DNA of 64,000 nt from an uncultured cyanobacterium (GTDB lineage: Bacteria; Cyanobacteriota; Cyanobacteriia; Cyanobacteriales; CAWCAG01). Below the pieces are notes generated by a model, which had not been told where the DNA came from, did no database searches, and saw only the letters and a program-made list of their open reading frames with translations. Within the stretch, counting starts at the first letter, position 1. Every line of letters starts with the position of its first letter. The stretch is taken from contig CAWDOD010000004.1 of NCBI GenBank assembly GCA_963803805.1, forward strand, positions 320,001-384,000, written 5' to 3'. Shown in pieces: positions 2,899 to 26,464 of this stretch. The position numbers and the translations under genes were made by a program.

Positions 2899-3136
2899 TC
2901 GTCTATGCAGGCTACTACAACTTCACTGTTAATACTACATTCAAACATATAGCTATCTAGCTGACTTTTTCTATTCAATAACCCTAAAGTATTTAAACGT
3001 TTACTTCTTTGACTTGCTCCCGGTTTCTGTTGTCCCGATTTCTTGCCAAGCGTAAGGGACACTTGGTATCAAACAAAAGCCGACCTCATCTACATATCTT
3101 ATGTCTATTTCTCCTCGTTTTTCTCTTTGAATCAGT
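2899..3136 (-). mobile_element. IS630-family transposase remnant (frameshifted internal fragment)
   Basis: Minus strand reads GEIDIRYVDEVGFCLIPSVPYAWQE, then in another frame RLNTLGLLNRKSQLDSYMFECSINSEVVVACID, matching the DDE_3 region of cyanobacterial IS630 transposases. Confidence 0.75.
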
Positions 3137-3603: not shown

Positions 3604-6600
3604 CTAATCAACTGCCCCTAAAGCCTTAAGAGTATTTTTCTGAGAAACAGTTAAACCACTAACATTCTTAATATTCATCCCCTCATAGGGGCGATCAACC
3701 CTCATAGTTTTGACACATTCCCCTGTTTCAAGCTGCCAAACCTTCAAAGTTTCATCCTCCCCACCACTAACTAAAACCTCACCATCGGCACTAAAGGCAA
3801 TGGAACGGATCGCTTTATCATGCCCTTGCAAAGTTTTGACAACCTCACCAGTCTCCAGATCCCACAACTTAACCGTCGTATCATCACTACCACTAGCTAA
3901 CACTTTACCATCAGGGCTAAAAGCAATTTTTCTGATGCGATCGCCATGTCCAGATAAGGTTTGTAAATATTTCCCTGTCTCAATATCCCAAAGTTTAATC
4001 TTCCTATCACCGCTGCCACTGGCTAGAATCTTTCCACTAGGACAAAAAGCCACTGATAAGACCCAATCCCTATGACCAGATAAGGTTTGCAAACACTCTC
4101 CTGTACTAACGTCCCATAGCTTGATAGTTGTATCATCACTACCACTAGCTAACACCTTACCATCTGGACTAAAGCCAATAGTCTTAACCTGTTGGCTATG
4201 ACTCTGTAAGGTTTGCAAACATTCCCCCGTCTGCCAATCCCACAGCTTGATAGTTTTGTCACCACTACCACTAGCAAAAATTGTTCCATCTGGGCTAAAG
4301 CTAATACTATGTACCCAATGTTCATGACCCCAAAGTGTCTGCAAACATTCTCCTGTACCGGTATTCCAAAGCTTAATAGTTGTATCATCACTACCACTAG
4401 CTAAAATCAGCTTATCTCCTCGGTTTTCTGGCAGAAAAGCAATTGCTGAAACAAGATTACTATGACCTTGCAATATTCCTAAACATTGCCCCGTCTCAAT
4501 ATTCCACAATCTCACCTGTTGGTCTTCACCGCTACTGGCTATGATTTGATCATCTAGACTAAAAGCAACAGACAAAATCCAATTGCTATAACCTACTACA
4601 GTTCGCAAACACTGCCCTGTAGCAAAGTCCCATAACTTCATAGTTTGGTTTTCGCTAATACTCAATAAGTTTTGACCATCTGGATTCATAGCTACTAACC
4701 AAATGCGGGAAGCAGTTTGATTGCCTTGAGGTGAATTGCTATTCTCATTAAGAGTTTGCAAACATTTTCCCGTAACCACATCCCAAATTTTTACCGTCAT
4801 ATCTTCGCTTCCGGTAATTAAATTTCGCCCATCTGGACTGTAAACAATTGACCACACTTCACTATGATAATCAGGTAATGTCTTGAGACACTCGCCGCTG
4901 TCTAAATCCCAAAATTTCACCGTGGTATGATCGCTTCCTGTCACCAAGGTTTGACCATCTGGACTCAAGGCAATGGCTAAAACCCAATTAATGGGGATTT
5001 CCAATACTTGCAAACAAGAACCTGTATTAACATCCCACACCCTTACAGTTTGGTCTTCACCACCAGTAACTAAAGTTTTGCCATCGGCACTAAAGCAGGT
5101 AAAAAAGACGCGATCGCTATGGCCTAATAAAATGCTAGAACACTTTCCAGTCTTGACATTCCACAACCTCACAGTCTGGTCATTGCTACCACTAGCAAGG
5201 ATATTTCCATCAGAACTAAAAGCTACTGCTTGTACTAAACTAGTATGACCCCGCAGAGTCTTCAAACATTGCCCAGTTTCGACATTCCACAACTTTATAG
5301 TCTGGTCATTGCTACCACTAGCTAATATTTGCCCATCGGGACTAAAAGCTACTGCTTGCACCCAAGCACTATGACCGCTGTAAGTTATCATGTGTTTAAG
5401 GTTAGCAACTTCCCATAACCAAATTTCATGATCAAGACTAGTAGCTAGTTGCTTGCCAGTCGGGCTAAAAGCAGCGGCAAAAACTCCCCCTAAAGTTCGA
5501 GTTACAGTAGAACGACTTAAGTCTGCATTGGCAAAATTGACATGATGCAAATTCATCCCCTGTAGGTAAGCTTGCCAAACAGTTAAATTAGAAAAATCAT
5601 AACCCTTCAAGTCAATGTCCAGTTGCCAAAGGAGATTGAGGAAATTTCCCCCTGCATATCCAGGTTTTCTAGGTTCGGAAGATTTTAAAGTTGCTAAGAT
5701 TTTATCTAAATAGCTTTGTACATTTCCGCGCATCCCTAGAAAGTTAAGTAGCTTATCGGCGATAGGCTTGAGAATAAGTTGAATTTGACTATTTCTGATA
5801 TAATCCTTGGCTTGGGCTTTAATTAAACTCAAACTTCCCAACAATCCTACCTCTCCAGTTTGGATCTCCTGACAAACCTCTTCAATTAAGCGATCAACTA
5901 CATACTCCATAACTACAGGCTGTTGAGTAAACTTACCGGCATTTTTTTCAATCAGCGATCGCAGTTTTAAAGATTCTAAAGCTGCCAACAAATCCTTGAA
6001 AGCGACTGGGGGAATGATATCTTTTTGTAACTCCTTAAACGACACCCACTCTCGATTAATAGTTAACCAGTACATGAGTTGTCTTTCTAAATTGGGTAAG
6101 CGATGAAACTGTTGGGCTAATAAATCAGCAATATCACCAAAAATAATCGTTCCTTCTGCCAAAAACTGAGTAACATCCCCATCGAACAACTCACTAATGG
6201 TTGTACCTACAATCTTCAAAGCTAAAGGATTTCCAGCATAAAAATCCACCAGAGTTTGACAATCTTCCCCAGAGACAGAAAGCCCTTTTTCTGAGAGAAT
6301 TTTTTTTCCATCTTGCTGAGTTAAACCTAATAAACTTAAAGAACGGATTGGTAAGTCTATGCCTTCTTTGATGCTAATTTCTTTAGGTTTCTCCCTCGTC
6401 GTCAACACCAAACAACTTTGATGGTTCGTTTCACCCCAACAGCGAAGTAAATGCCCGTATCCTTCATATCCTTGGCGATAAACCCCTGTCTGTTCATCAC
6501 CTAACAAAATAGACTCGGCGTTATCTAAAACAAGTAGACAACGCTGCGATCGCAGATAGTTAATTAAGCTCGAAATTTTACCATCTAAACTTTCAGGTAA

Positions 6601-8272: not shown

Positions 8273-8608
8273 TTAACCCACAGCAAACTCGGTCAACTGA
8301 CGCATCTTAGGAGTGTTGAAACCAATCACAATATCTTGCTTTGGCACTCCCATCTCCACTAACTCCTGAGCAACATCAACCTCAGTTGTATTTTGCTCAA
8401 TCCAAATCTTCCCCTCCTTAATACTCAAGTGCATCATACAACCATAAACTCTTCTTTGCTGATTCCAACCAATACTAATAATTTGATAGTGGTCGCGCTC
8501 TAAATCAAAAACCTGTTCCACATCAACCTCACCATAACTAGGTTTGTACTGGGAATAAGTTGTTAGTATCTCCTTAATCTTTTCTCGGTAACTTGCTAAC
8601 TTATCCAT
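8273..8608 (-). CDS. xisI: XisI-family protein
   Basis: MDKL..YR, DHYQIISIGW, GKIWIEQNTTE, GVPKQDIVIGF motifs; overlaps xisH. Confidence 0.93.
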   Translation of the reverse strand: MDKLASYREKIKEILTTYSQYKPSYGEVDVEQVFDLERDHYQIISIGWNQQRRVYGCMMHLSIKEGKIWIEQNTTEVDVAQELVEMGVPKQDIVIGFNTPKMRQLTEFAVG

Positions 8609-9009
8609 GTAGCAATCTCCTCCTTATCTACATCATAAACAACAATCTTTAGCTCGTTTTCTTGAGCAATAATTTGAGTAAAAGCTAACTTAAAAAAATC
8701 GTCATAAACACTCAAAGGAACTGCTAAATATAAAACCCTCTCTGGTTCTTCTAAACGCAATGCTGTGCGGTAATTAATAAATTGTCCCAGGGCTGTATGA
8801 AACTCAGAAATCTTAGAAGCACTAACAAAGTTTTTTACTTCCACAGCTATTTTTTCTGTCCCTTTCTCGGCAGCTAAAAGCTTCTCAACCCCCAAATCTA
8901 TTTGAATATCAACCCCACCACAGCGAATACTCAAAGGGTCATCGGTAATCACCCACCCATCCTTTTCCAAAGCAGAGCGCACAATATCATGGAATAAATC
9001 CCTTGCCAT
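8596..9009 (-). CDS. xisH: XisH-family protein (PD-(D/E)XK-like)
   Basis: MARDLFHDIVRSALEKDGWVITDDP, IAVEVKNF, FHTALGQFINY motifs. Confidence 0.93.
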   Translation of the reverse strand: MARDLFHDIVRSALEKDGWVITDDPLSIRCGGVDIQIDLGVEKLLAAEKGTEKIAVEVKNFVSASKISEFHTALGQFINYRTALRLEEPERVLYLAVPLSVYDDFFKLAFTQIIAQENELKIVVYDVDKEEIATWIS

Positions 9010-9056: not shown

Positions 9057-10091
9057 TCAAAAAGGTTTAGGCTCAACAATCTTCACCTGCAAAGTACCAA
9101 TCACATATTGCCCCTTCAACGCCGCAATAACCTCCTCAATCTTCGCGTAATTCAACACAACAGAACTACCACTCACCGTAATAGCCTGTAAACTATCCCC
9201 TTCAACAGGAGTATTAATCTCCTCTGGAAAATCCACCGCCACAGAGCCAGAAACAAAAGCCACTCCCTTTAAAGACTGCTGTTGTATCTTCAGCAGCTTC
9301 TCCACCGCCTCCTCATCATTAAAACTCAAAGTCTCCAACCTAGTAGTCGCCTCCTTCCCCACAGAAGTAGTCAACTTCTTCACCACCAACTGCTCACCAG
9401 AATGATAAAGCTTCCCTTCCCTACTCAAAAGAATAAACTCATCATTAGCCAAATCCACCACAAAATAATCACCATCCACAGAAGAGCGATCACCTTTCCT
9501 AAAACCCTGTACCTCCGCCCACACATGATGGTTTGCAGCCTTCTCGTTATACATGGTAATAGCAGAATCCCGCAAACCAAGAGACTGTCCCGCCTTCTGC
9601 ACCACACCCCCTTCTAATACCAGGTGCAAATTAAACAGCAGTATTATAATTGCTCCCACCAACACCCAATACTCCGTCACACTCCCCGTCTCCAACCGCC
9701 GTCGGGGATTAGAACCACACACGCACCACACCGGCTCAGGCCAGAACAACTGTACTCCCTTCTTCGTAAAAGTATCACTAAAACAACTAATCAAATGACC
9801 TAACGGCAGCGCCAACAAAAACAGCACCTTCCCCAAAATTAAACCCACCAACAAACTAGGTAAAGCGATCGCCACCGTAGCCAACAAAGAATGAGTAATC
9901 GTTCTATGGGGATACCTATCCTCAATCCAACTACTGAAAGGGAAACAAATCTGACCAATCAAACTAGTACTAGTATCAATATCAGGTAATTGACTACCAA
10001 TAATCGCCAACCCTAGAGGTAAAGGGTTGAAACTGCCTAGAATGAGTGAGACTCCAGTAGCTGCGATCGCAGCGTGAGTTATCGCCATCAT
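9057..10091 (-). CDS. membrane-bound metal-dependent hydrolase (YdjM/DUF457-like) with soluble C-terminal extension
   Basis: THAA, GSQLPDID, HRTITHS and GHLISCFSDTFTKKGV motifs within several TM helices. Confidence 0.85.
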   Translation of the reverse strand: MMAITHAAIAATGVSLILGSFNPLPLGLAIIGSQLPDIDTSTSLIGQICFPFSSWIEDRYPHRTITHSLLATVAIALPSLLVGLILGKVLFLLALPLGHLISCFSDTFTKKGVQLFWPEPVWCVCGSNPRRRLETGSVTEYWVLVGAIIILLFNLHLVLEGGVVQKAGQSLGLRDSAITMYNEKAANHHVWAEVQGFRKGDRSSVDGDYFVVDLANDEFILLSREGKLYHSGEQLVVKKLTTSVGKEATTRLETLSFNDEEAVEKLLKIQQQSLKGVAFVSGSVAVDFPEEINTPVEGDSLQAITVSGSSVVLNYAKIEEVIAALKGQYVIGTLQVKIVEPKPF

Positions 10092-10134: not shown

Positions 10135-11238
10135 CTATTGCCACTGCTTCAAACCATTGTACTCCTTGAGGGCCCGCTCATTACCAGGCTCAATTGCCAA
10201 AGCATTCTCATAGGAAGTCAATGCCTCAGACAGTCTACCTAACTGCTCTAAAGACAAACCACGGTAATACAAAACATCCGCATTCTTGGGGTCTATCTTG
10301 ATAGCCTTATTATACGAAGCTATAGCTTTAGAGTGTTTTCCTGAAGCAGCCAGTGACATACCACGATAGTACCAAGCTTCAAAATAGTTGGGTTCAAGCT
10401 CTAAAGCCCTTTCATGGGAAGCCACAGACTCAGGGTATCTGCGTAGGTAATACAAAGAAACACCTCGATTTTCCCAAACATAAGGAAGATTAGGGTCAAT
10501 TTCCAAAGCTTTATCGTAAGAAGCCACAGCCTCAAAGTATTTGCCTAAATGTTTCAAAGCAATACCGCGATTGTTCCAAGTATCAGGGTCATTAGGGTCA
10601 ATTTCCAAAGCTTTATCGTAAGAAGCCACAGCCTCAGAATCCTTACCTAATCGCTCCAGTACAATACCGCGACTGTTCAAATTAGAAGTATCATTGGGGT
10701 CAATTGCCAAAGCTTTGTTATAGGAAGTTAATGCTTCAGAGTCCTTACCTAATTGTTCCAATAAAATACCACGACTGTTCCAAATAAAAGTATCATTAGG
10801 AGCAATTTCCAAAGCCTTGTCATAGGAAGCTAGTGCCTCAGAAGACTTACCCAACCGGAACAAAGACCAACCATAATAAGACCATAACTTAGCATTTTCA
10901 GGTTCAATCTTCAACGCCTTACTATATGAAGATGCAGCTTCAGAGTAATTACCACAATTCATCTGTGCGGCTGCACGATGAATTAATGCCTCAGTATAAT
11001 TAGGTTTAATCTCCAAAGCCTGGTCATACTTATCCACAGCCTCCTGGTAACGCCCCTTGATACAAAGCTCAACACCCTCATTCACAAGCTGTCCTGCTTC
11101 TTGTCTATCAGAAACAAATCCTCCACAAACCTCAACAAGATCGGCCAAAGAATAATCTTGCTGAACATCTTCAAAAACACAGCCAGATAAAGGGAAAAGG
11201 AGAACTCCCAAGAAGGTGATCCAGTAACAAGATTTCAT
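10135..11238 (-). CDS. TPR-repeat lipoprotein
   Basis: ATG at 11238 gives signal peptide MKSCYWITFLGVLLFPLSGC with lipobox LSGC, followed by about nine 34-aa TPR repeats (SYDKALEIDPN). Confidence 0.85.
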   Translation of the reverse strand: MKSCYWITFLGVLLFPLSGCVFEDVQQDYSLADLVEVCGGFVSDRQEAGQLVNEGVELCIKGRYQEAVDKYDQALEIKPNYTEALIHRAAAQMNCGNYSEAASSYSKALKIEPENAKLWSYYGWSLFRLGKSSEALASYDKALEIAPNDTFIWNSRGILLEQLGKDSEALTSYNKALAIDPNDTSNLNSRGIVLERLGKDSEAVASYDKALEIDPNDPDTWNNRGIALKHLGKYFEAVASYDKALEIDPNLPYVWENRGVSLYYLRRYPESVASHERALELEPNYFEAWYYRGMSLAASGKHSKAIASYNKAIKIDPKNADVLYYRGLSLEQLGRLSEALTSYENALAIEPGNERALKEYNGLKQWQ

Positions 11239-11375
11239 GACAACCCACAAAATAAATATGAAATCAAACTCTACCAACATCCTAACTGCATCAAAGATAC
11301 TAAACTCTCTGAGTAAGCAAAAATTTATGGAAGAGTGCAAATTGCTGACACTATCTCCTTATCTAGGATGAAAAC

Positions 11376-12254
11376 TCACTGTCCTCTCCTCTTTTTTGCT
11401 CCCCTAATCTGTCCCAATTGCTTAAACATCATCGCCAGGATTAGGCTAACACCGCCGAAAATGTAGAGTGATCTATTCCCAGTTCCCATACCGACAAATC
11501 TGACCACACCGAAAGCCATAAATGAGCTAATAATAATTGGGGAAATATCAAGGTACTGGCTATGTTCAGGCTTCGCCTTCTGGTTCAACCCTAAAGCCTC
11601 ATTTCTAATCACCTTCCTCGCTAACATAGGATTTCTCCCAGCCAAAGGTTGTAAAGCTGCTAGCTTCTCCCTACTCAAATCCAAACCTTGTTTAAAGGCT
11701 TCTTGTTTCATCACCTCCCGAATCTTCTTATCTGTGGGTAGGGATAGTTCAAACTCAATCAAATCCAGAAAAATATCTCGTCCTGGGTTAACCACCGCAA
11801 AACAGCAAATCATCACCCCAGCATCAAGTAAATCTTCTAGCCAGTAACGAACGCCAGTAGTCAAACGTTTCGCCTCTGGGAAAATCAACAGAGTTCCACC
11901 CCCACAGTTAATAGCAATCTCTTCTTTCAACGCATCCATCGTCAAAGACTTGGTTCTGCCGTTATCATCCTCAATTTCTGTAGGAATATCTAACTGTTCT
12001 GCGATCGCCTGAAAGAACTTCTTACCAGAGCCTTTATATACTGCCATCGCACAATCCATTTTCGGCTGGAAATGCTCATAAACAGCCTTAGCCAATTCTC
12101 GTTTACCAGTGCCAGCTTCCCCCAGTATCAAAACAGAATGGCCCGACTCAATTGCTTTGAGAATGTTCTCCTCATCCTCCGTTAATTCCCGCCTTGGTTC
12201 CTGTACTGGCTGAGTAAATTCTTGGCTATGGATTTCACCTTGGCGGGGTTGTTC
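11376..12254 (-). CDS. P-loop ATPase with two C-terminal TM helices; probably translated as the -1 frameshift extension of the upstream gene
   Basis: Walker A GEAGTGKR, atypical Walker B (LLIFPE), GRNPMLA, hydrophobic C-terminus. The frame is open upstream to ~12300 but has no ATG/GTG/TTG before the TTG at 12131, three codons before Walker A. Confidence 0.75.
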   Translation of the reverse strand, partial: EQPRQGEIHSQEFTQPVQEPRRELTEDEENILKAIESGHSVLILGEAGTGKRELAKAVYEHFQPKMDCAMAVYKGSGKKFFQAIAEQLDIPTEIEDDNGRTKSLTMDALKEEIAINCGGGTLLIFPEAKRLTTGVRYWLEDLLDAGVMICCFAVVNPGRDIFLDLIEFELSLPTDKKIREVMKQEAFKQGLDLSREKLAALQPLAGRNPMLARKVIRNEALGLNQKAKPEHSQYLDISPIIISSFMAFGVVRFVGMGTGNRSLYIFGGVSLILAMMFKQLGQIRGAKKRRGQ

Positions 12255-12769
12255 TTTGGGCGGGAAATCTCCCTCGCTAGATTTAACTTCTCCTTCAAAT
12301 CAGGAGGTAAATCCTCCTCACTCATCTCATTCGCGATCGCCCGCTTCACCAAATCAGCCATCGCCAACTCACTAGCCTTCAACTCCGCAGCTTCCCTCAT
12401 CAACTGCTCAAAGTTTGGATTAAAACTTTCCGTCTCTGGCTCCAAAGTTTCCAAATCATCATCTTCATCCGTCGTAATATCATGACCTCCTGACTTCACG
12501 ATTTCATTACTACCTTTATCAAGATTGCTATCACCTTCACCTTGGAAAATACTTTTATCAAAACCTTCCATCTTGCCAGTCTTTTTTATATGCTGGTCTA
12601 ACCCCTCCATCAAATCCACCTGCTCAGAAGATAGAAAGCTTGCTTTATTCTTTCTCTTCGGTTTTATCCCCAAGAAATTAATCCTGTCGTAGTAGGCATT
12701 GTTCCTAATACCAAACTTTTCTAGAATTTCGTTTTTGGTATACATCCTGGTTCCTGTAGTCTGAGTCAT
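12182..12769 (-). CDS. hypothetical protein with N-terminal HTH-like region and C-terminal helical region
   Basis: Good SD (AGGAGG) before the ATG. N-terminus YTKNEILEKFGIRNNAYYDRINFLGIKP resembles a small winged/MerR-like HTH (inference). Confidence 0.75.
   Translation of the reverse strand: MTQTTGTRMYTKNEILEKFGIRNNAYYDRINFLGIKPKRKNKASFLSSEQVDLMEGLDQHIKKTGKMEGFDKSIFQGEGDSNLDKGSNEIVKSGGHDITTDEDDDLETLEPETESFNPNFEQLMREAAELKASELAMADLVKRAIANEMSEEDLPPDLKEKLNLAREISRPKNNPAKVKSIAKNLLSQYRNQGGN
12188..12275 (-). promoter_or_regulatory. candidate -1 programmed ribosomal frameshift cassette
   Basis: SD-like GAGGGAG (12275-12269), 8-nt spacer, in-phase slippery C_CCA_AAG (12260-12254), 6-nt spacer, stem CCCGCC (12247-12242) / GGCGGG (12193-12188). 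Confidence 0.7.
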
Positions 12770-13103
12770 TTTTTTATTCCTCCTACATTACATATTATGT
12801 ATATAGCAAGAAAAAAAAATCTCGCCATAAATTTGGTGAGACTACCAAAATTTTGTAAAGTTCAGTTACAGCAGAATATTTGAGTTTGAGAAATTGAACC
12901 TTACGAATAGCAACGAAATTAATACTTAAAAGCTTGAGACGGGATTCTAGTAAGAGAAAAATAAATGGTTAATAAATGCTTTTTCTTCTTAATATTACTT
13001 AAGCTATTTTAGGGATTTGGTTTTAAGCTTGAGCTTTTACTTCTTGCTGACAAATTAGGGATAAATACTTTTTTACTAAGTTTTGGAAAGGTGAAAGAAT
13101 TAA

Positions 13104-13161: not shown

Positions 13162-13455
13162 TTACTCAGATAGTACTCCCCTCAAAGGTTCTGGTATCTC
13201 TTCGTAATGCTCTAGCAAGAAGTTAGCTAGGGCCAGGTGATATTTATCGTTAAAACTGGCAGAGCGATCGCTACGAAGGGAAAACCACTTACTCACTGTT
13301 GAATTTGCTTTCCGACAAATCAAAGCCACATCGTCATAAGTAACAGCCCATCTTGAATAGAACTCCTGGGGAGTCATTATCAAATTGCAGGAACTGTAGA
13401 GCAAAATGATTCTTCGCTCCCTGGAACCCAGAGAGCGCTGCTGTTTTTCTGTCAT
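13162..13455 (-). CDS. small HTH DNA-binding protein (cyanobacterial plasmid/island type)
   Basis: MTPQEFYSRWAVTYDDVALICRKANSTVSKWF HTH pattern; likely ATG at 13455. Confidence 0.75.
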   Translation of the reverse strand: MTEKQQRSLGSRERRIILLYSSCNLIMTPQEFYSRWAVTYDDVALICRKANSTVSKWFSLRSDRSASFNDKYHLALANFLLEHYEEIPEPLRGVLSE

Positions 13456-13480
13456 AATCTTAATTAACCTCAAGTGGGTT

Positions 13481-13520
13481 GCCCGTGCAGTTTGGTTGTC
13501 AGCCCCTGCACGGGCTTTTT
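13481..13520. promoter_or_regulatory. 10-bp GC-rich hairpin in the leader of the HTH gene (terminator-like on + strand)
   Basis: GCCCGTGCAG (13481-13490) / CTGCACGGGC (13506-13515), 15-nt loop, T5 at 13516-13520. Confidence 0.55.
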
Positions 13521-13654
13521 AATGTCTTGAAGATAACATAAATACGCTTTTAAAGAAATACGCTTATTTGCAAGTGCAGAAATACTGTAATCTTTAAATA
13601 AGTTTAATTGTAAACACGATGATTATTGCGGTACAAAATCAAAAGGGATGAGTT

Positions 13655-13873
13655 ATGGGAGGGCTGTTAATGGCCAATGAAAAAGCCGAAGTCGAAGCTA
13701 AATCCACTGCTAAGTCAGATGGAGAAGAAAAAAAGCCCAAGGGAAAGATGAAGCGTTTAACTTTGGATATTCCAGAATCTTTGCACCGGGCTATCAAGAT
13801 GAAGTCGGTGGAGGAGGGAGTTCCTATGACAGATATCCTGCGGGGGTTGTTGCAGGAGCATTTTGCTGATTAG
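13655..13873 (+). CDS. ribbon-helix-helix (ParG/CopG-like) protein
   Basis: MKRLTLDIPESLHRAIKMKSVEEGVPMTDILRGLL is a classic RHH pattern. Confidence 0.8.
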   Translation: MGGLLMANEKAEVEAKSTAKSDGEEKKPKGKMKRLTLDIPESLHRAIKMKSVEEGVPMTDILRGLLQEHFAD

Positions 13874-13890
13874 GTGAGGAACTACAAATT

Positions 13891-14429
13891 ATGGATGTCA
13901 TCAGGGCGAGAAGAAAAACCGTTTCCTTCTTTGAAGGGTTAGAGGTAGATGGTTATCAACTACCTAACGGCGAATTCAGGGTCGGTATCATTGGGGCCAG
14001 CACAGTACTTGGTTATGGTAAAAACTGGCTCTCTCGGGCCATAGAAAGGGTGGTAACACAAAAAAAGCTTTGCTAGGTCTAGGTTTCAGCGAAAATCTCC
14101 AAAAAGTGGTAACTGAAACTCTGCGAGGAGACAGGGAGGCTAGAACCCTGGGTTTAAGGGATTTTAATCGTCTTATTGCCTACGCTGTCTCTGACGGTAA
14201 AAAAGCGGCTCTAGCTTTGCAACTAGCTCTAACAGAGGTGGCCCTCAATGACTTTTTTCGGGATGCTTTTGAGGAGCCACCTTTAAGTGTTGTCCAAAAA
14301 CGCCAACTATTCTACGAAGCCTATGCTGCTAGTATTTCTCCAGAGGATTGGCGAAGAATGGATAGAGAAGAGATTTTAAGGTTAGCTTTGGCTGGGGATG
14401 AGCCGCAGTTAGAGGATTGGAACAAGTAA
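13891..14429 (+). pseudogene. phage/plasmid-type putative DNA-binding protein (P63C/antirepressor-like), split by a -1 frame change at ~14050-14067
   Basis: FFEGLEVDGYQLPNGEFRVGI N-terminus; the two ORFs join as ...RAIER-GGNTKKALLGLGFSE if one G is added at 14048-14050. Confidence 0.55.
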
Positions 14430-14506
14430 AGCTCCCAAAAAAACTACTTTCTAGAATCGCATTTCTATAGACTAATAAGCGAAGGTGTTAACGAGCTTCG
14501 TTTTAT

Positions 14507-14761
14507 TTAAACATCGCTAAACTTCTTGATCATCGCTTTTGCCCTACGACGATTAGCAATATAGCGCCTATTTTGCAATCGCTGTTGAGCTAAAGTATTA
14601 ACTTTTGCGAGAGCTTCAGGATTGTCCTTGAGATACAAAAGCGCAGCTTCAAACTTTTGACTGCGATCGCCCAAACCATTTATCCCTAAAAGGAACGATA
14701 CCAAGAATTTTTCCCGTAAATGCTCCTAGAGTAGCTAAATTATTAGCTAGTTCTAAAGTAC
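14507..14761 (-). pseudogene. 3' fragment of an unidentified gene, cut off by the ISKra4-type end at 14762
   Basis: Two short overlapping frames with protein-like sequence, no start before the IS terminal repeat. Confidence 0.35.
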
Positions 14762-15272
14762 GGGAGCATCTCATATTTGTAAAAATATCATCAAGAAAAG
14801 AAGTTATTGAGATAAGCGCAGCGCAAAGAAAGAATACGAGGAACATTATCAATTCTCCACTGTGAACCTGATATTTTAACTCGCATTCCTATTTGTTTAA
14901 TTCCTGATTCTATTGCTCCTGAACCAATAGAACTTATTTGTTCTGTTTGGTAGTAAGTCATAGTTAATGATTCGCTGACGATGAGTTTCTAAATACTTGC
15001 AAAAGTTAATAGCTTTTTTCTTGGTCAAACTTTTAAATAAATCTCTGGTTTCCGATACTTTTCCTAACCAGAGTAGCTCAGTTGCTTCTTTTAGACGTTT
15101 TAAAGAACCTCCTACTTGATAAAGGTTTTCTTTGAGATGATACCAATCTAATATTTCCCTTCTGTTTTGGATATTCCCCATCTCTTCAAACAAGTTCCAA
15201 ATCCCCGGATGACCATCTCCTGTACAGAAAAAGGGGGTGAGCAATTTTTGGCTATTTACCCAGTCTATTAAA
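14762..15272 (-). mobile_element. ISKra4-family transposase 3' remnant with intact terminal repeat
   Basis: GDGHPGIWNLF, REILDWYHLKENL and, after a frameshift, IGSGAIESGIKQIG...LRCAYLN; terminal GGGAGCATCTCA at 14762-14773. Confidence 0.85.
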
Positions 15273-15740
15273 GATTTGTATAGTTTAGGCTTAACAATGG
15301 TGTTTTTGTTAACAGGAAAGATTCCCCAAGAATTAGCAATTGATCCTATAACAGGAAAGTTACTTTGGCACAATCATGTTAAACATATTGATCCCAAGTT
15401 GATAGCTATTATAAATCGGGCTATTGAAACCAACTTCTACCATCGCTACAGTGGCGCTCAAGAAATGTTAAATGCTTTCGGGACTATTACTCAAAATACA
15501 CCTACTATTAACTTTCCTCAACCAAGAGTAGCTGATTCTCTTATTGTAGAAAAGCCATCGTTAGTTGATGAGCAAGAGTATAATTCCACTAATACAATCA
15601 CAAAAAAATGGCATAAAGCTGTAATTGTTGCTAGCATAGTCAGTTCATTTTCAGCCTTTCTTTGGTATTTAAGCTATACTTATTTTCCTTCCCAACAACC
15701 AACTGAAACTCAATCTCTTTTAATACCAGATTCTGTTTAG
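15273..15740 (+). pseudogene. C-terminal fragment of a Ser/Thr protein kinase with TM helix
   Basis: DLYSLGLTMVFLLTGKIP (kinase subdomain IX), RYSGAQEML (subdomain XI), downstream TM; N-terminal lobe absent, fragment abuts the IS remnant. Confidence 0.8.
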
Positions 15741-24259: not shown

Positions 24260-26464
24260 ATGGAATTTGATTTTTTACCTAAGCTGCCTAAACCCGATTT
24301 AGATGACCGCACATTTCAGGACTTAGTAGAAGAGTGTAAGTTACGGATTCCTCGTTACTGTCCGGAGTGGACAAATTATAACCCCAGTGACCCAGGAATA
24401 ACCCTCATTGAGTTATTCGCTTGGTTAACTGACCAAATGTTGCTACGGTTTAATCAGGTTCCTCGGCGCAACTATGTCACCTTCCTAGAACTCCTTGGGG
24501 TACGCCTGCAACCTCCAACACCAGCTAAAACTGCCCTCACCTTTTATCTTAGTGCTTCATTGGATGATGCTTATAGTATTCCAGTTGGGACAGAAGTGGC
24601 GACAGTACGTACAGAAACTGAAGAAGCAGTGGTTTTTCGGACTGATAAAACCTTGGTAGTTGGCAAACCTACCCTCAAACATCTCCTCACTGCAATGGAA
24701 ACTGAAACCCAACCCCAAATTCTCCGCGATCGCTTTAGTGGTATTTGGCGATTGGGGCCTAATGAAGAGTGGGAGGGGCCAGAGTTAAGTTTGTTTAATG
24801 AACAACCTGAAGAAGGGAACTGTTTTTATTTAGTTTTTAACCCCGATGACCCCATTGCCGGGAATGTTATCTCTGTCACCTTTAAAGGAGAAGCAGCTAC
24901 TTCTACCGGTATTAACCCTGAACAACCGCCGCGCCGTTGGGAAGCTTGGAATGGGGCTTTTTGGGAACCTATTTTACTTAAAGAAGGGGATGATAGTACC
25001 GAAGGATTTAGCTTTGCCCAGTTAACCAGGGAAGGAGGTGATCCTTTTGATGGTACAGATGTTATTTTCCATACTCCCCAAAATTGGCCTGTCACTCAAT
25101 TTGTCACTTATCAAGGGCGGTGGTTGCGTTGTGTCTATGCCAAAAAACATGACCGCCAGCCCGGTTATTCGAGTTCACCTCGCATAGTTGGTTTAAGTAG
25201 TCGTTCCTTGGGAGGAACAGTCGGGGCTACCCAATCTACTTTAGTACGGGATGAAATTTTAGGGGATAGTGATGGACAGCCCGGTCAAACTTTTCAACTC
25301 CAAGAAACCCCAATTTTACCTCGCACAGAAGCTGAATATATTGTGGTAACTCCCCCGGTGGGACTGCCCCAAAATTGGCAAGAAGTATCAGATTTTGCCG
25401 AATCTACTAATGAAGATTTCCACTATACCCTAGACTCCACCACAGGGCTAGTTCAGTTTGGTCCATTGATTCGTGAACCAGCCCAACTACAAACCGTAAC
25501 TCATTGGCGAACTCAACTCCAATCCGCTAGGACTGGCCCAGCCAGCGAAGGTGATCAACCGACAGTTCCCCCAGATATAGCCCAGATGGAACGTCAATAC
25601 GGGGCTGTACCTCCGAGGGGTTCAACTATTCGTATGGTTGCCTATCGTACTGGAGGAGGGCTGAGGGGTAATGTCCAAAGCAAAACCGTCACTGTCATAA
25701 AATCTGCTGTTCCTTATGTAGCTAGTGTTACCAACCACAAACCAGCCCGCCATGGTTCCGATGCAGAATCATTGGAAAATGCTGTGATTAGAGTACCAAA
25801 ACTATTACGTACCCGCGATCGCGCCGTAACCGCAGAAGATTTTGAAACCTTAGCTAAAGCTGCGGGCCTAGGTGCAATCGCCCGGGCCCGTTGCATTCCC
25901 TCTTTAAGTCAAGATGACGCTGGCATCGTCCGCCTCGTCTTAGTCCCTCAAGCTAATTTAGATGGCATTGCTAGGAGGGAAGGTATTCACCCCGACTGGT
26001 TTAATCTTAATCAAAGTATTGTAGACCAAGTAATTGCTTACCTTGATGAACGGCGTTTATTAGGGGTAGAAGTGAAGTGTCATAAAGCTGAATATGTTGG
26101 GGTGGCAGTACAAACTGAGGTAGCCCTAGAACCAGAGTATAATAACCCCCAAGCCCAACAGGAAATTCTCAACCAACTCCAAGTTGCCCTCTATACTTTC
26201 CTTAATCCCCTCATCGGGGGACCAGAAGCAACAGGATGGCCCTTTGGTCGGCAAGTTTATTCTTCAGATATTGTTAACTTGTTCCAAATTATTCCAGGAG
26301 TGCGTTATCTAGGAACAGTACAACTCTTTGAAATTCGTCACGATGGGAGAAATTGGGTTAGGAGACTACCAAAAGAACCCGTTATCGACCCCGGCCCCTT
26401 GGGCTTAATCTGTTCCTGGTACGACCATCAACTACGTTCGGGCCACGTAATCAACCTAATTTAA
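24260..26464 (+). CDS. putative baseplate assembly protein (baseplate J / gp6-like, Afp11-type)
   Basis: LDDRTFQDLV, PEWTNYNPSDPGITLIELFAW, YRTGGG, RDRAVTAEDFE, GWPFGR. Confidence 0.93.
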   Translation: MEFDFLPKLPKPDLDDRTFQDLVEECKLRIPRYCPEWTNYNPSDPGITLIELFAWLTDQMLLRFNQVPRRNYVTFLELLGVRLQPPTPAKTALTFYLSASLDDAYSIPVGTEVATVRTETEEAVVFRTDKTLVVGKPTLKHLLTAMETETQPQILRDRFSGIWRLGPNEEWEGPELSLFNEQPEEGNCFYLVFNPDDPIAGNVISVTFKGEAATSTGINPEQPPRRWEAWNGAFWEPILLKEGDDSTEGFSFAQLTREGGDPFDGTDVIFHTPQNWPVTQFVTYQGRWLRCVYAKKHDRQPGYSSSPRIVGLSSRSLGGTVGATQSTLVRDEILGDSDGQPGQTFQLQETPILPRTEAEYIVVTPPVGLPQNWQEVSDFAESTNEDFHYTLDSTTGLVQFGPLIREPAQLQTVTHWRTQLQSARTGPASEGDQPTVPPDIAQMERQYGAVPPRGSTIRMVAYRTGGGLRGNVQSKTVTVIKSAVPYVASVTNHKPARHGSDAESLENAVIRVPKLLRTRDRAVTAEDFETLAKAAGLGAIARARCIPSLSQDDAGIVRLVLVPQANLDGIARREGIHPDWFNLNQSIVDQVIAYLDERRLLGVEVKCHKAEYVGVAVQTEVALEPEYNNPQAQQEILNQLQVALYTFLNPLIGGPEATGWPFGRQVYSSDIVNLFQIIPGVRYLGTVQLFEIRHDGRNWVRRLPKEPVIDPGPLGLICSWYDHQLRSGHVINLI

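Follow-up and report, generated by a model that had tools for sequence, protein, structure and literature searches.

The DNA analyzed here comprises 64,000 nucleotides from an uncultured cyanobacterium (NCBI GenBank assembly GCA_963803805.1, contig CAWDOD010000004.1, positions 320,001 to 384,000 of the forward strand); we refer to this whole stretch as the window and count coordinates from its first nucleotide. On its minus strand lie two overlapping open reading frames (ORFs), encoding a putative DNA-binding protein and a predicted ATPase, which carry in their overlap the elements of a candidate −1 programmed ribosomal frameshift. The upstream ORF (12182..12769, from ORF calling and translation) is read in what we call the 0 frame and specifies a short product of 195 residues; an AGGAGG Shine–Dalgarno (SD) sequence, read directly at 12779..12784, lies 9 nt 5′ of its ATG at 12769. 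Measured from stop to stop, the ATPase frame spans 307 codons (11376..12299); it stands at −1 relative to the upstream ORF and shares 118 nt (39 codons) with it. Within the overlap the mRNA presents, in order, an internal SD-like GAGGGAG (12269..12275, read directly), a spacer of 8 nt, the heptamer C_CCA_AAG (12254..12260), which the upstream ORF reads in phase as CGC CCA AAG and which is the proposed shift site, the 6-nt spacer AACAAC, and CCCGCC (12242..12247). The latter is the 5′ arm of a candidate 3′ stimulatory stem, whose 3′ arm GGCGGG (12188..12193) follows after 48 nt, in the final codons of the upstream ORF. The sole ATG, GTG, or TTG in the −1 frame of the window ahead of the Walker A motif (GEAGTGK, residues 60–66 of the stop-to-stop translation, 12102..12122) is a TTG at 12131, three codons before the motif and without an SD. 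A −1 slip on CCA-AAG would join residues 1–172 of the upstream protein, K172 being the last residue read in the 0 frame, to the 292 codons read after the shift up to the stop (11376..12253), which specify a linker that is not conserved, an AAA+ domain, and, at the C-terminus, a hydrophobic hairpin. The computed fusion has 464 residues and the predicted junction peptide ISRPK-EQPRQGEIHSQEFTQPVQEPR (beginning ISRPK-EQPRQ). A preliminary description of this locus, made from the sequence alone, had reported the frames, their 39-codon overlap and exact −1 relation, the lone TTG, the order of the five overlap elements, and the two product sizes (195 residues, and 464 as 172 + 292), and all of these were recovered on rereading and recomputation; its remark that initiation at the TTG would cost the ATPase its N-terminal helix agrees with the structure model.

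The arrangement is kept across cyanobacteria. We compared the window with 80 cyanobacterial loci obtained from a scan of one genome per species, giving 81 loci (individual ones are cited below as L numbers). The ATPase is single-copy in the source genome and has 719 relatives at E ≤ 1e-3; the best 120 of these 719 are 220–314 residues long with scattered N-termini, and the organisms named for them by the sources are cyanobacteria. In 66 of the 81 loci the gene immediately 5′ of the ATPase encodes a homolog of the upstream protein, and in 62 of these 66 two-gene loci the ATPase frame is −1, with overlaps of 61–238 nt. Among the 15 loci without an upstream tblastn match, five (L019, L035, L048, L053, and L055) follow the same pattern on inspection, with the same Pro-Lys in both frames, and most of the others are contig ends or ATPase remnants that are truncated or disrupted. 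At the nucleotide level, the features on which the preliminary description had built its case, namely the −1 overlap, C CCA AAG at synonymous sites, and the SD-like element, are all conserved among homologs.

We tallied the slippery heptamer in two ways. Within the overlap of the 61 loci that have a −1 overlap, the in-phase heptamer is CCCAAAG in 51, CCCAAAA in three, AAAAAAG in two, TTTAAAA in two (L075 and L077), GGGAAAG in one (L040), and CCCAAAT in one. When phase was reckoned relative to Walker A for all 81 loci and the upstream gene was ignored, a phase-correct CCCAAAG was found 41–72 codons ahead of Walker A in 55 loci; the others have CCCAAAA (three), AAAAAAG (three), CCCAAAT (two), GGGAAAG (one, L040, for which the raw tally had an earlier TTTAAAT), or a different in-phase heptamer (four: TTTAAAA in L075 and L077, GGGTTTG in L054, and AAATTTC in L076), and no in-phase heptamer was found in 13. 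By our own arithmetic the chance expectation of a phase-correct CCCAAAG is about 0.004 per locus, so that the 55 of 81 observed are far above chance. Loci without CCCAAAG tend to have another classical slippery heptamer at the homologous place. Codon usage at the site is also constrained among 60 non-redundant loci: the proline codon is CCA in 55 of 55 cases against a same-gene background of 31%, and in all 55 the third base of the preceding codon is C (AAC 34, GCC 6, GTC 5, AGC 3, CGC 3, CCC 2, ACC 1, and CTC 1) against 19% C at four-fold sites. The lysine codon is AAG in 54 of the 60 loci and AAA in five, and entropy is zero at heptamer positions 1–6, compared with a mean of 1.6 bits at third positions downstream. 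Because CCA is universal at the site and the preceding C is invariant over eight amino acids, neither a requirement for particular amino acids nor the sequence of the upstream protein can account for this pattern.

The reading frames on either side of the heptamer behave as expected for a shift at this point. In 15 of the 60 non-redundant loci a stop codon in the −1 frame stands immediately 5′ of the heptamer; −1 translation in these loci therefore cannot originate further upstream. Over the 18 codons past the heptamer, compared in 50 indel-free loci, stops are absent from both the −1 frame and the 0 frame (0/50 each) and present in the +1 frame in 45/50, with mean pairwise identities of 23% for the −1, 46% for the 0, and 25% for the +1 frame. 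Nucleotide variability in the 0 frame past the heptamer peaks at the third codon position, and in the tail of the short product A182 is invariant and L186 and R190 are nearly so. Given the 0-frame identity, the third-position variability, and the invariant A182, the C-terminal tail of the short product is under protein-level selection. The −1 frame in the overlap reads as a linker that is merely kept open, which is the signature that a frameshift overlap would be expected to leave.

We also examined the sequences flanking the heptamer for stimulatory elements. The 3′ end of the 16S rRNA of the source organism is GGAUCACCUCCUU, confirming the anti-SD of the genome. In 58 loci the pairing of 8-mers with the anti-SD peaks at starts 13–14 nt before the heptamer, with a mean of −5.8 kcal/mol relative to a background over ±190 nt of −1.04 kcal/mol (standard deviation 1.15), and the GAGGGAG of the window is likely a 5′ stimulator of the shift. 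As a side observation, an exact 13-nt copy of the 16S 3′ end, GGATCACCTCCTT, is found at 25032..25044 on the minus strand; Rfam detects neither rRNA nor any other RNA family in the whole window, and the copy is probably a chance match inside a gene.

On the 3′ side, the minimum free energy fold of the 84 nt past the heptamer of the window includes the CCCGCC/GGCGGG helix and its GGU/ACC continuation, in agreement with the preliminary description, at a stability that is not unusual (z = −1.17). The 75 nt past the heptamer are slightly more stable than shuffled sequences: their mean folding z is −0.89, with 15/60 loci below −2, and for a control segment inside the ATPase gene it is −0.46, with 5/60 loci below −2. 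Contiguous stems starting 3–9 nt past the heptamer reach p<0.05 against shuffles in a set of loci that includes the window (p = 0.04) and its nearest relatives L029 (12 bp), L005 (11 bp, CCCGCU/AGCGGG), L059, L003, and L025 (with a G-U pair), and other clades have different stems, for example one of 13 bp in L065. In an alignment of nine sequences of the window subclade, 75% of stem cells are paired, compared with 31–53% in slid registers. A 3′ stem is therefore probable in the lineage of the window, and the stem of the preliminary description appears to be confined to that subclade rather than a family-wide requirement.

Based on the frame arrangement, the heptamer maintained at synonymous sites, the SD-like element, and the stop-free −1 frame, all of which are apparent from the comparison of homologs, we consider it very probable that the two ORFs constitute one recoded gene whose expression involves −1 programmed ribosomal frameshifting at C_CCA_AAG. 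Most ribosomes would reach the upstream stop and release the 195-residue soluble protein, in which a winged helix–turn–helix is followed by a linker, by helices, and by a tail of 23 conserved residues. A minority would slip one base back on CCA-AAG, their tRNAs re-pairing on CCC-AAA, probably aided by pairing of the GAGGGAG 8 nt upstream with the tail of 16S rRNA and, in the lineage of the window, possibly also by the CCCGCC/GGCGGG stem 6 nt downstream. The slipped ribosomes would produce the 464-residue fusion, in which residues 1–172 are followed by the unconserved linker, the AAA+ ATPase, and the hydrophobic membrane hairpin. Because the ATPase domain of this family has no initiation signal of its own, it would be made only as part of the fusion. 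The DNA-binding and central helical parts would be common to both forms, whose C-termini would differ: a conserved helix in the short form, and the linker, ATPase, and hairpin in the long one.

Several observations weigh against this reading. That ribosomes actually slip, with what efficiency, and that the 464-residue protein exists are points we infer from the comparison; the homologs support the −1 frameshift of the preliminary description, and the set ratio that it assigned to the two products is likewise conjectural. One of the 61 overlap loci lacks a heptamer (L044), and the ATPases of L075 and L077 each have their own ATG. In nine of the 61 a GTG stands directly after CCC AAA in the −1 frame, where internal initiation is conceivable; this is the only real opening for internal initiation, and it is not conserved. 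Own-start ATPases also occur on plasmids of distant subfamilies, with an ATG overlapping the upstream stop (TGATG) in Synechococcus elongatus PCC 11801 and a separate annotated start in Anabaena 90, so that a free-standing ATPase is viable and the pair therefore also exists as coupled separate polypeptides. Part of the SD-like peak is possibly due to conserved Arg-Glu codons. With respect to the 3′ structure, RNAalifold predicts no pairs on 57 anchored sequences, the contiguous stem is significant in only 11/60 loci, and covariation of the stem pairs, the check that the preliminary description had proposed, is not significant in the nine-sequence subclade and no better than in the shuffle control. 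A continuous in-frame fusion is found in 0/66 two-gene loci, and no upstream-protein relatives of at least 343 residues were found, which is weak evidence by the tool's own account; by the same results, homologs do not show the single continuous ORF that the preliminary description had named as evidence of an indel. Finally, in L078 (2270–2560), a locus from a metagenome-assembled genome, both genes are in the same frame with one stop between them and the −1 frame ends early after Pro-Lys; possible explanations are an error, a compensating indel, or expression by another mode.

The alternative that survives best, although we regard it as improbable, is that the pair consists of two ordinary overlapping genes and that the ATPase initiates by itself at a weak or non-canonical start, namely the TTG at 12131 in the window and the GTG past the heptamer elsewhere, perhaps with the SD-like element as its ribosome-binding site. 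Gene finders do call separate ATPases of 220–314 residues, the SD-like element lies about 13 nt upstream of the post-heptamer GTG in the nine loci that have it, and the distant subfamilies with their own ATG agree with this alternative. However, in 20 of the 61 overlap loci the −1 frame contains no ATG, GTG, or TTG from the point where it opens to Walker A, and no conserved ATPase start, the feature by which the preliminary description would have recognized an independent gene, was found among the homologs compared. The starts that have been called are scattered: the "M" or "V" N-termini of database entries are incidental GTG codons, for example one spanning Lys-Trp of the 0 frame or one at Gln-Trp-Arg near its end. 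Self-initiation at the window TTG would moreover proceed without an SD and lose the N-terminal helix, and self-initiation anywhere leaves unexplained why CCA and the preceding C are invariant in 55 of 55 loci and why other slippery heptamers replace CCCAAAG.

Fusion at the RNA level, in which a slipping polymerase adds or drops a base to give a continuous-frame mRNA, is less probable still. Such slippage is conceivable on the run of seven A residues in A_AAA_AAG, which three loci contain, but 55 of the 81 loci have CCCAAAG with identical-base runs of only three, and known transcriptional slippage sites are far longer than this; the X_XXY_YYZ pattern with its phase specificity belongs to ribosomal slippage, as does the SD-like element. 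Nothing beyond the bare frame break speaks for an assembly error or for a recent pseudogenizing indel in the source genome, and both are refuted by the −1 arrangement in 62/66 loci of many genera and in finished plasmids, by selection on both frames, and by contigs of two public DNA runs that are gap-free at the site, one spanning 11700..12314 at ≥99% identity (possibly the source sample) and one, from a relative of <90% identity, spanning 12218..12314; the cross-species conservation is the stronger argument against an artefact.

The predicted structures provide some indication of what the two products are. The AlphaFold model of the upstream protein (predicted local distance difference test score, pLDDT, of 77) contains a β-α-α-β-β-α unit at residues 9–64 (pLDDT above 90), a disordered region at 80–115, and helices at 120–148, 156–169, and 175–191, and the shift site at P171/K172 falls between the last two helices. 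The fold of the N-terminal unit matches the DNA-binding domain of RacA (best), CarH, GlnR, and pSK1 Par; the RacA match is weak (E 8e-3, template modeling (TM) score 0.76 on the target, root-mean-square deviation 2.2 Å over 65 residues), and the protein has no Pfam match. This model suggests, with the caution that a weak match demands, a putative DNA-binding protein with an N-terminal MerR-type winged helix–turn–helix. The ATPase model (pLDDT 73) is matched by Foldseek to Cdc6/ORC, RFC, DnaA, and TnsC at E values of 1e-6 to 2e-5 and TM scores of about 0.4–0.5, and E61 and G63 of its P-loop are invariant in 20 homologs. Among Pfam families, AAA_22 scores 21.3 bits, below its cut-off of 27, and Sigma54_activat scores 23.7 against a cut-off of 20.2 over 43 residues around the P-loop only; no NCBIfam family matches near its cut-off, and a PDB profile search gave P-loop-level matches only (E ≥ 0.045). 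The ESM Atlas returned only the family's own clusters, "ATP-binding protein" of Cyanobacteriota, and the PADLOC and PHROGs libraries gave insignificant matches only. The modeled P-loop, α/β core, and helical lid identify the protein as a predicted AAA+ ATPase resembling initiators and clamp loaders, with no specific curated family convincingly passed.

The C-terminus of the ATPase contains two strongly conserved hydrophobic segments followed by a basic tail (11412..11552, minus strand), forming a putative membrane anchor. The model has helices at residues 253–297, and the Kyte–Doolittle maxima for 19-residue windows are 1.76 and 1.52, for windows starting at residues 252 and 278; we infer that this region inserts into or anchors the protein to the membrane. 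In a subfamily that includes Adonisia and Leptolyngbya PCC 7375 (P0058, P0072, and P0089; L027, L035, and L043), the P-loop has degenerated to LAE[LT]GMVG.M without GK. The loci of this subfamily retain the −1 overlap and CCCAAAG (L035 by the count anchored on Walker A), so that the fusion may be important even where no ATP is hydrolyzed. Two further loci, L038 (2435–2560) and L076 (2240–2560), contain a short frame-changing insertion in the ATPase between "...NAI" and "AAGNSV..." and are probably decaying copies.

To our knowledge, conserved bacterial −1 frameshifts outside insertion sequences and phages are few (dnaX, copA, and chlD). In the Escherichia coli dnaX gene, which encodes an AAA+ protein, the −1 shift takes place on a heptamer that ends in A_AAG, and an SD-like element upstream and a stem-loop downstream stimulate it; in the gene type, the heptamer ending, and the 5′ element dnaX resembles the window pair. 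Unlike the dnaX shift (tau/gamma), which truncates the product after one codon, the shift in the window pair would add 292 residues with a whole ATPase, and the NCBIfam search shows no sequence relationship of the ATPase to the dnaX families. The lambda-type tail chaperones G/GT are alike in that a −1 shift near the end of an ORF extends a minor fraction of the product, with a common N-terminus and a fixed ratio; G_GGA_AAG, the variant heptamer of L040, is lambda's own shift site. Unlike these, the window pair has no phage context, and its PHROG matches are insignificant. The heptamer of E. coli copA, described by Meydan and colleagues in 2017, is reportedly C_CCA_AAG itself; there the shifted product (CopA(Z), beside CopA) is a short truncated chaperone, whereas in the window pair it would be the long form. 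The copA shift is stimulated by a downstream pseudoknot, according to the sections consulted of the article PMC6182138. Excerpts of Atkins et al. (2016, PMC5009743) list C_CCA_AAG, as well as G_GGA_AAG, as shift-prone in E. coli, the former highly so. In chlD, encoding a Mg-chelatase component, a single gene gives rise to two subunits by way of a conserved frameshift signal (Kuznetsov et al. 2022, PMC9227772, in excerpt); it is likewise a frameshift in a prokaryotic AAA+-related gene, of unrelated family and function.

A close architectural parallel is with the IS3 family (IS911, IS150, and IS3, with OrfA and OrfAB). In these elements a helix–turn–helix (HTH) upstream ORF is overlapped by a start-less downstream ORF at −1, the heptamer ends in A_AAG, an SD-like element lies upstream of it and a 3′ structure is often present, and the two products share the N-terminal DNA-binding part; these details derive in part from Atkins et al. 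(2016, PMC5009743). In contrast, the downstream domain of the window pair is AAA+ with a hydrophobic C-terminus instead of a DDE transposase, the heptamer is C_CCA_AAG instead of A_AAA_AAG, and the gene is single-copy and lies in a conserved operon with a YdjM-like gene. Membership of the IS3 family was rejected because the downstream ORF has no DDE (rve) transposase domain, giving weak AAA/P-loop matches in Pfam and NCBIfam and AAA+ folds.

In the literature that we searched on CCCAAAG, cyanobacterial frameshifting, and pSYSX genes we found no prior description of this site, in agreement with the preliminary description, which knew of none for this non-transposase cyanobacterial family. The site goes unmentioned in the main text of Antonov et al. 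(2013), although the supplementary cluster tables could still list the cluster. For Synechocystis, the portions consulted of a proteogenomic paper from 2023 and of a riboproteogenomic preprint from 2026 report the prfB +1 frameshift only. Recoding of this cyanobacterial gene pair at C_CCA_AAG has apparently never been described before. The comparative evidence for it is unusually clean, spanning several cyanobacterial orders and dozens of genomes and plasmids. If the proposal is correct, the gene model changes, in that the annotated plasmid "ATP-binding protein" would have no existence apart from a fusion, of which it forms the C-terminal part. The presence of the same signal on plasmids of laboratory strains (pSYLA and pSYSX, and pAQ5 with a different heptamer) makes it directly testable, and it would provide an initial way into a conserved plasmid operon that encodes an HTH protein, an ATPase, a YdjM-like hydrolase, and a DUF87 ATPase.

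What the system does can only be suggested tentatively. RacA and pSK1 Par act in DNA anchoring and partition, their DNA-binding domains superpose on the N-terminus of the upstream protein, and a ParA-like ATPase gene is nearby in 18 loci; against the likeness stand the weakness of the match and the lack of a Pfam match noted above. It is conceivable, if rather doubtful, that the long form anchors DNA bound by its N-terminal domain to a membrane ATPase assembly, and about as doubtful that such a DNA-anchoring assembly works with the YdjM-like hydrolase, and on other plasmids with the DUF87 ATPase, in plasmid or island maintenance or in DNA handling. With similar doubt, we hypothesize that an unrecognized recoding event, widespread on plasmids and genomic islands of cyanobacteria and found in model strains too, fixes the ratio of a soluble RacA/Par-like protein to its membrane-ATPase version, the anchored form being kept sub-stoichiometric, and that the long form tethers plasmid or island DNA to the membrane and acts there with the YdjM-like hydrolase and, where present, the DUF87/HerA-like ATPase as a new kind of machine for DNA segregation or DNA handling.

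The gene neighborhood is partly conserved. A homolog of the YdjM family of membrane-bound metal-dependent hydrolases is encoded in the window at 9057..10091 on the minus strand (PF04307, E 3e-22), such a homolog follows the ATPase in 39 loci, the same order is found on plasmids, and a DUF87 ATPase gene follows on several plasmids. A tblastn search of plasmids with the ATPase gave 45 records, and the ten organisms tallied and the 30 matches listed are all cyanobacteria. The heptamer is C_CCA_AAG, in phase, on pSYLA of Synechocystis PCC 6714, whose upstream gene is intact (184 residues), on a plasmid of Microcystis NIES-88, and on pSYSX of Synechocystis PCC 6803 (L089, 2044–2597, heptamer at 2501). 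Relative to pSYLA, the pSYSX upstream gene has an additional frame break, by which it is divided between two annotated ORFs. The pSYSX record has two matching places, and a tandem duplication of this plasmid begins at position 4,092, according to excerpts of Sakamaki et al. (2024, PMC10899382). The possibility that the fusion is a plasmid replication initiator was set aside because autonomous replication of pSYSX maps outside the cassette, to slr6031 and slr6090 in the same excerpts (PMC10899382). On pAQ5 of Picosynechococcus PCC 7002 (L083, 43% identity), the −1 overlap is accompanied by C_CCU_UUA at the homologous position (3016–3022), a TGA shuts the −1 frame directly before this heptamer, and GGAGG lies 11 nt upstream; the RefSeq ATPase of pAQ5 starts at a GTG 171 nt further down.

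Other genes surround the pair in the window. A gene for a 401-residue protein with tetratricopeptide repeats (10135..11340, minus strand) lies between the ATPase and the YdjM-like gene and looks like an insertion into the operon, given that the YdjM-like gene closely follows the ATPase in the 39 other loci. Just downstream of the YdjM-like gene is a XisH/XisI pair (8273..9009, minus strand; Pfam E 2e-55 and 7e-47). Upstream of the frameshift pair, 13162..15373 is occupied by short ORFs without known families, of which 13655..13873 has a weak CopG-like match and 14070..14429 matches a PHROG of unknown function (E 3.5e-15), and this block is consistent with a mobile or island context.

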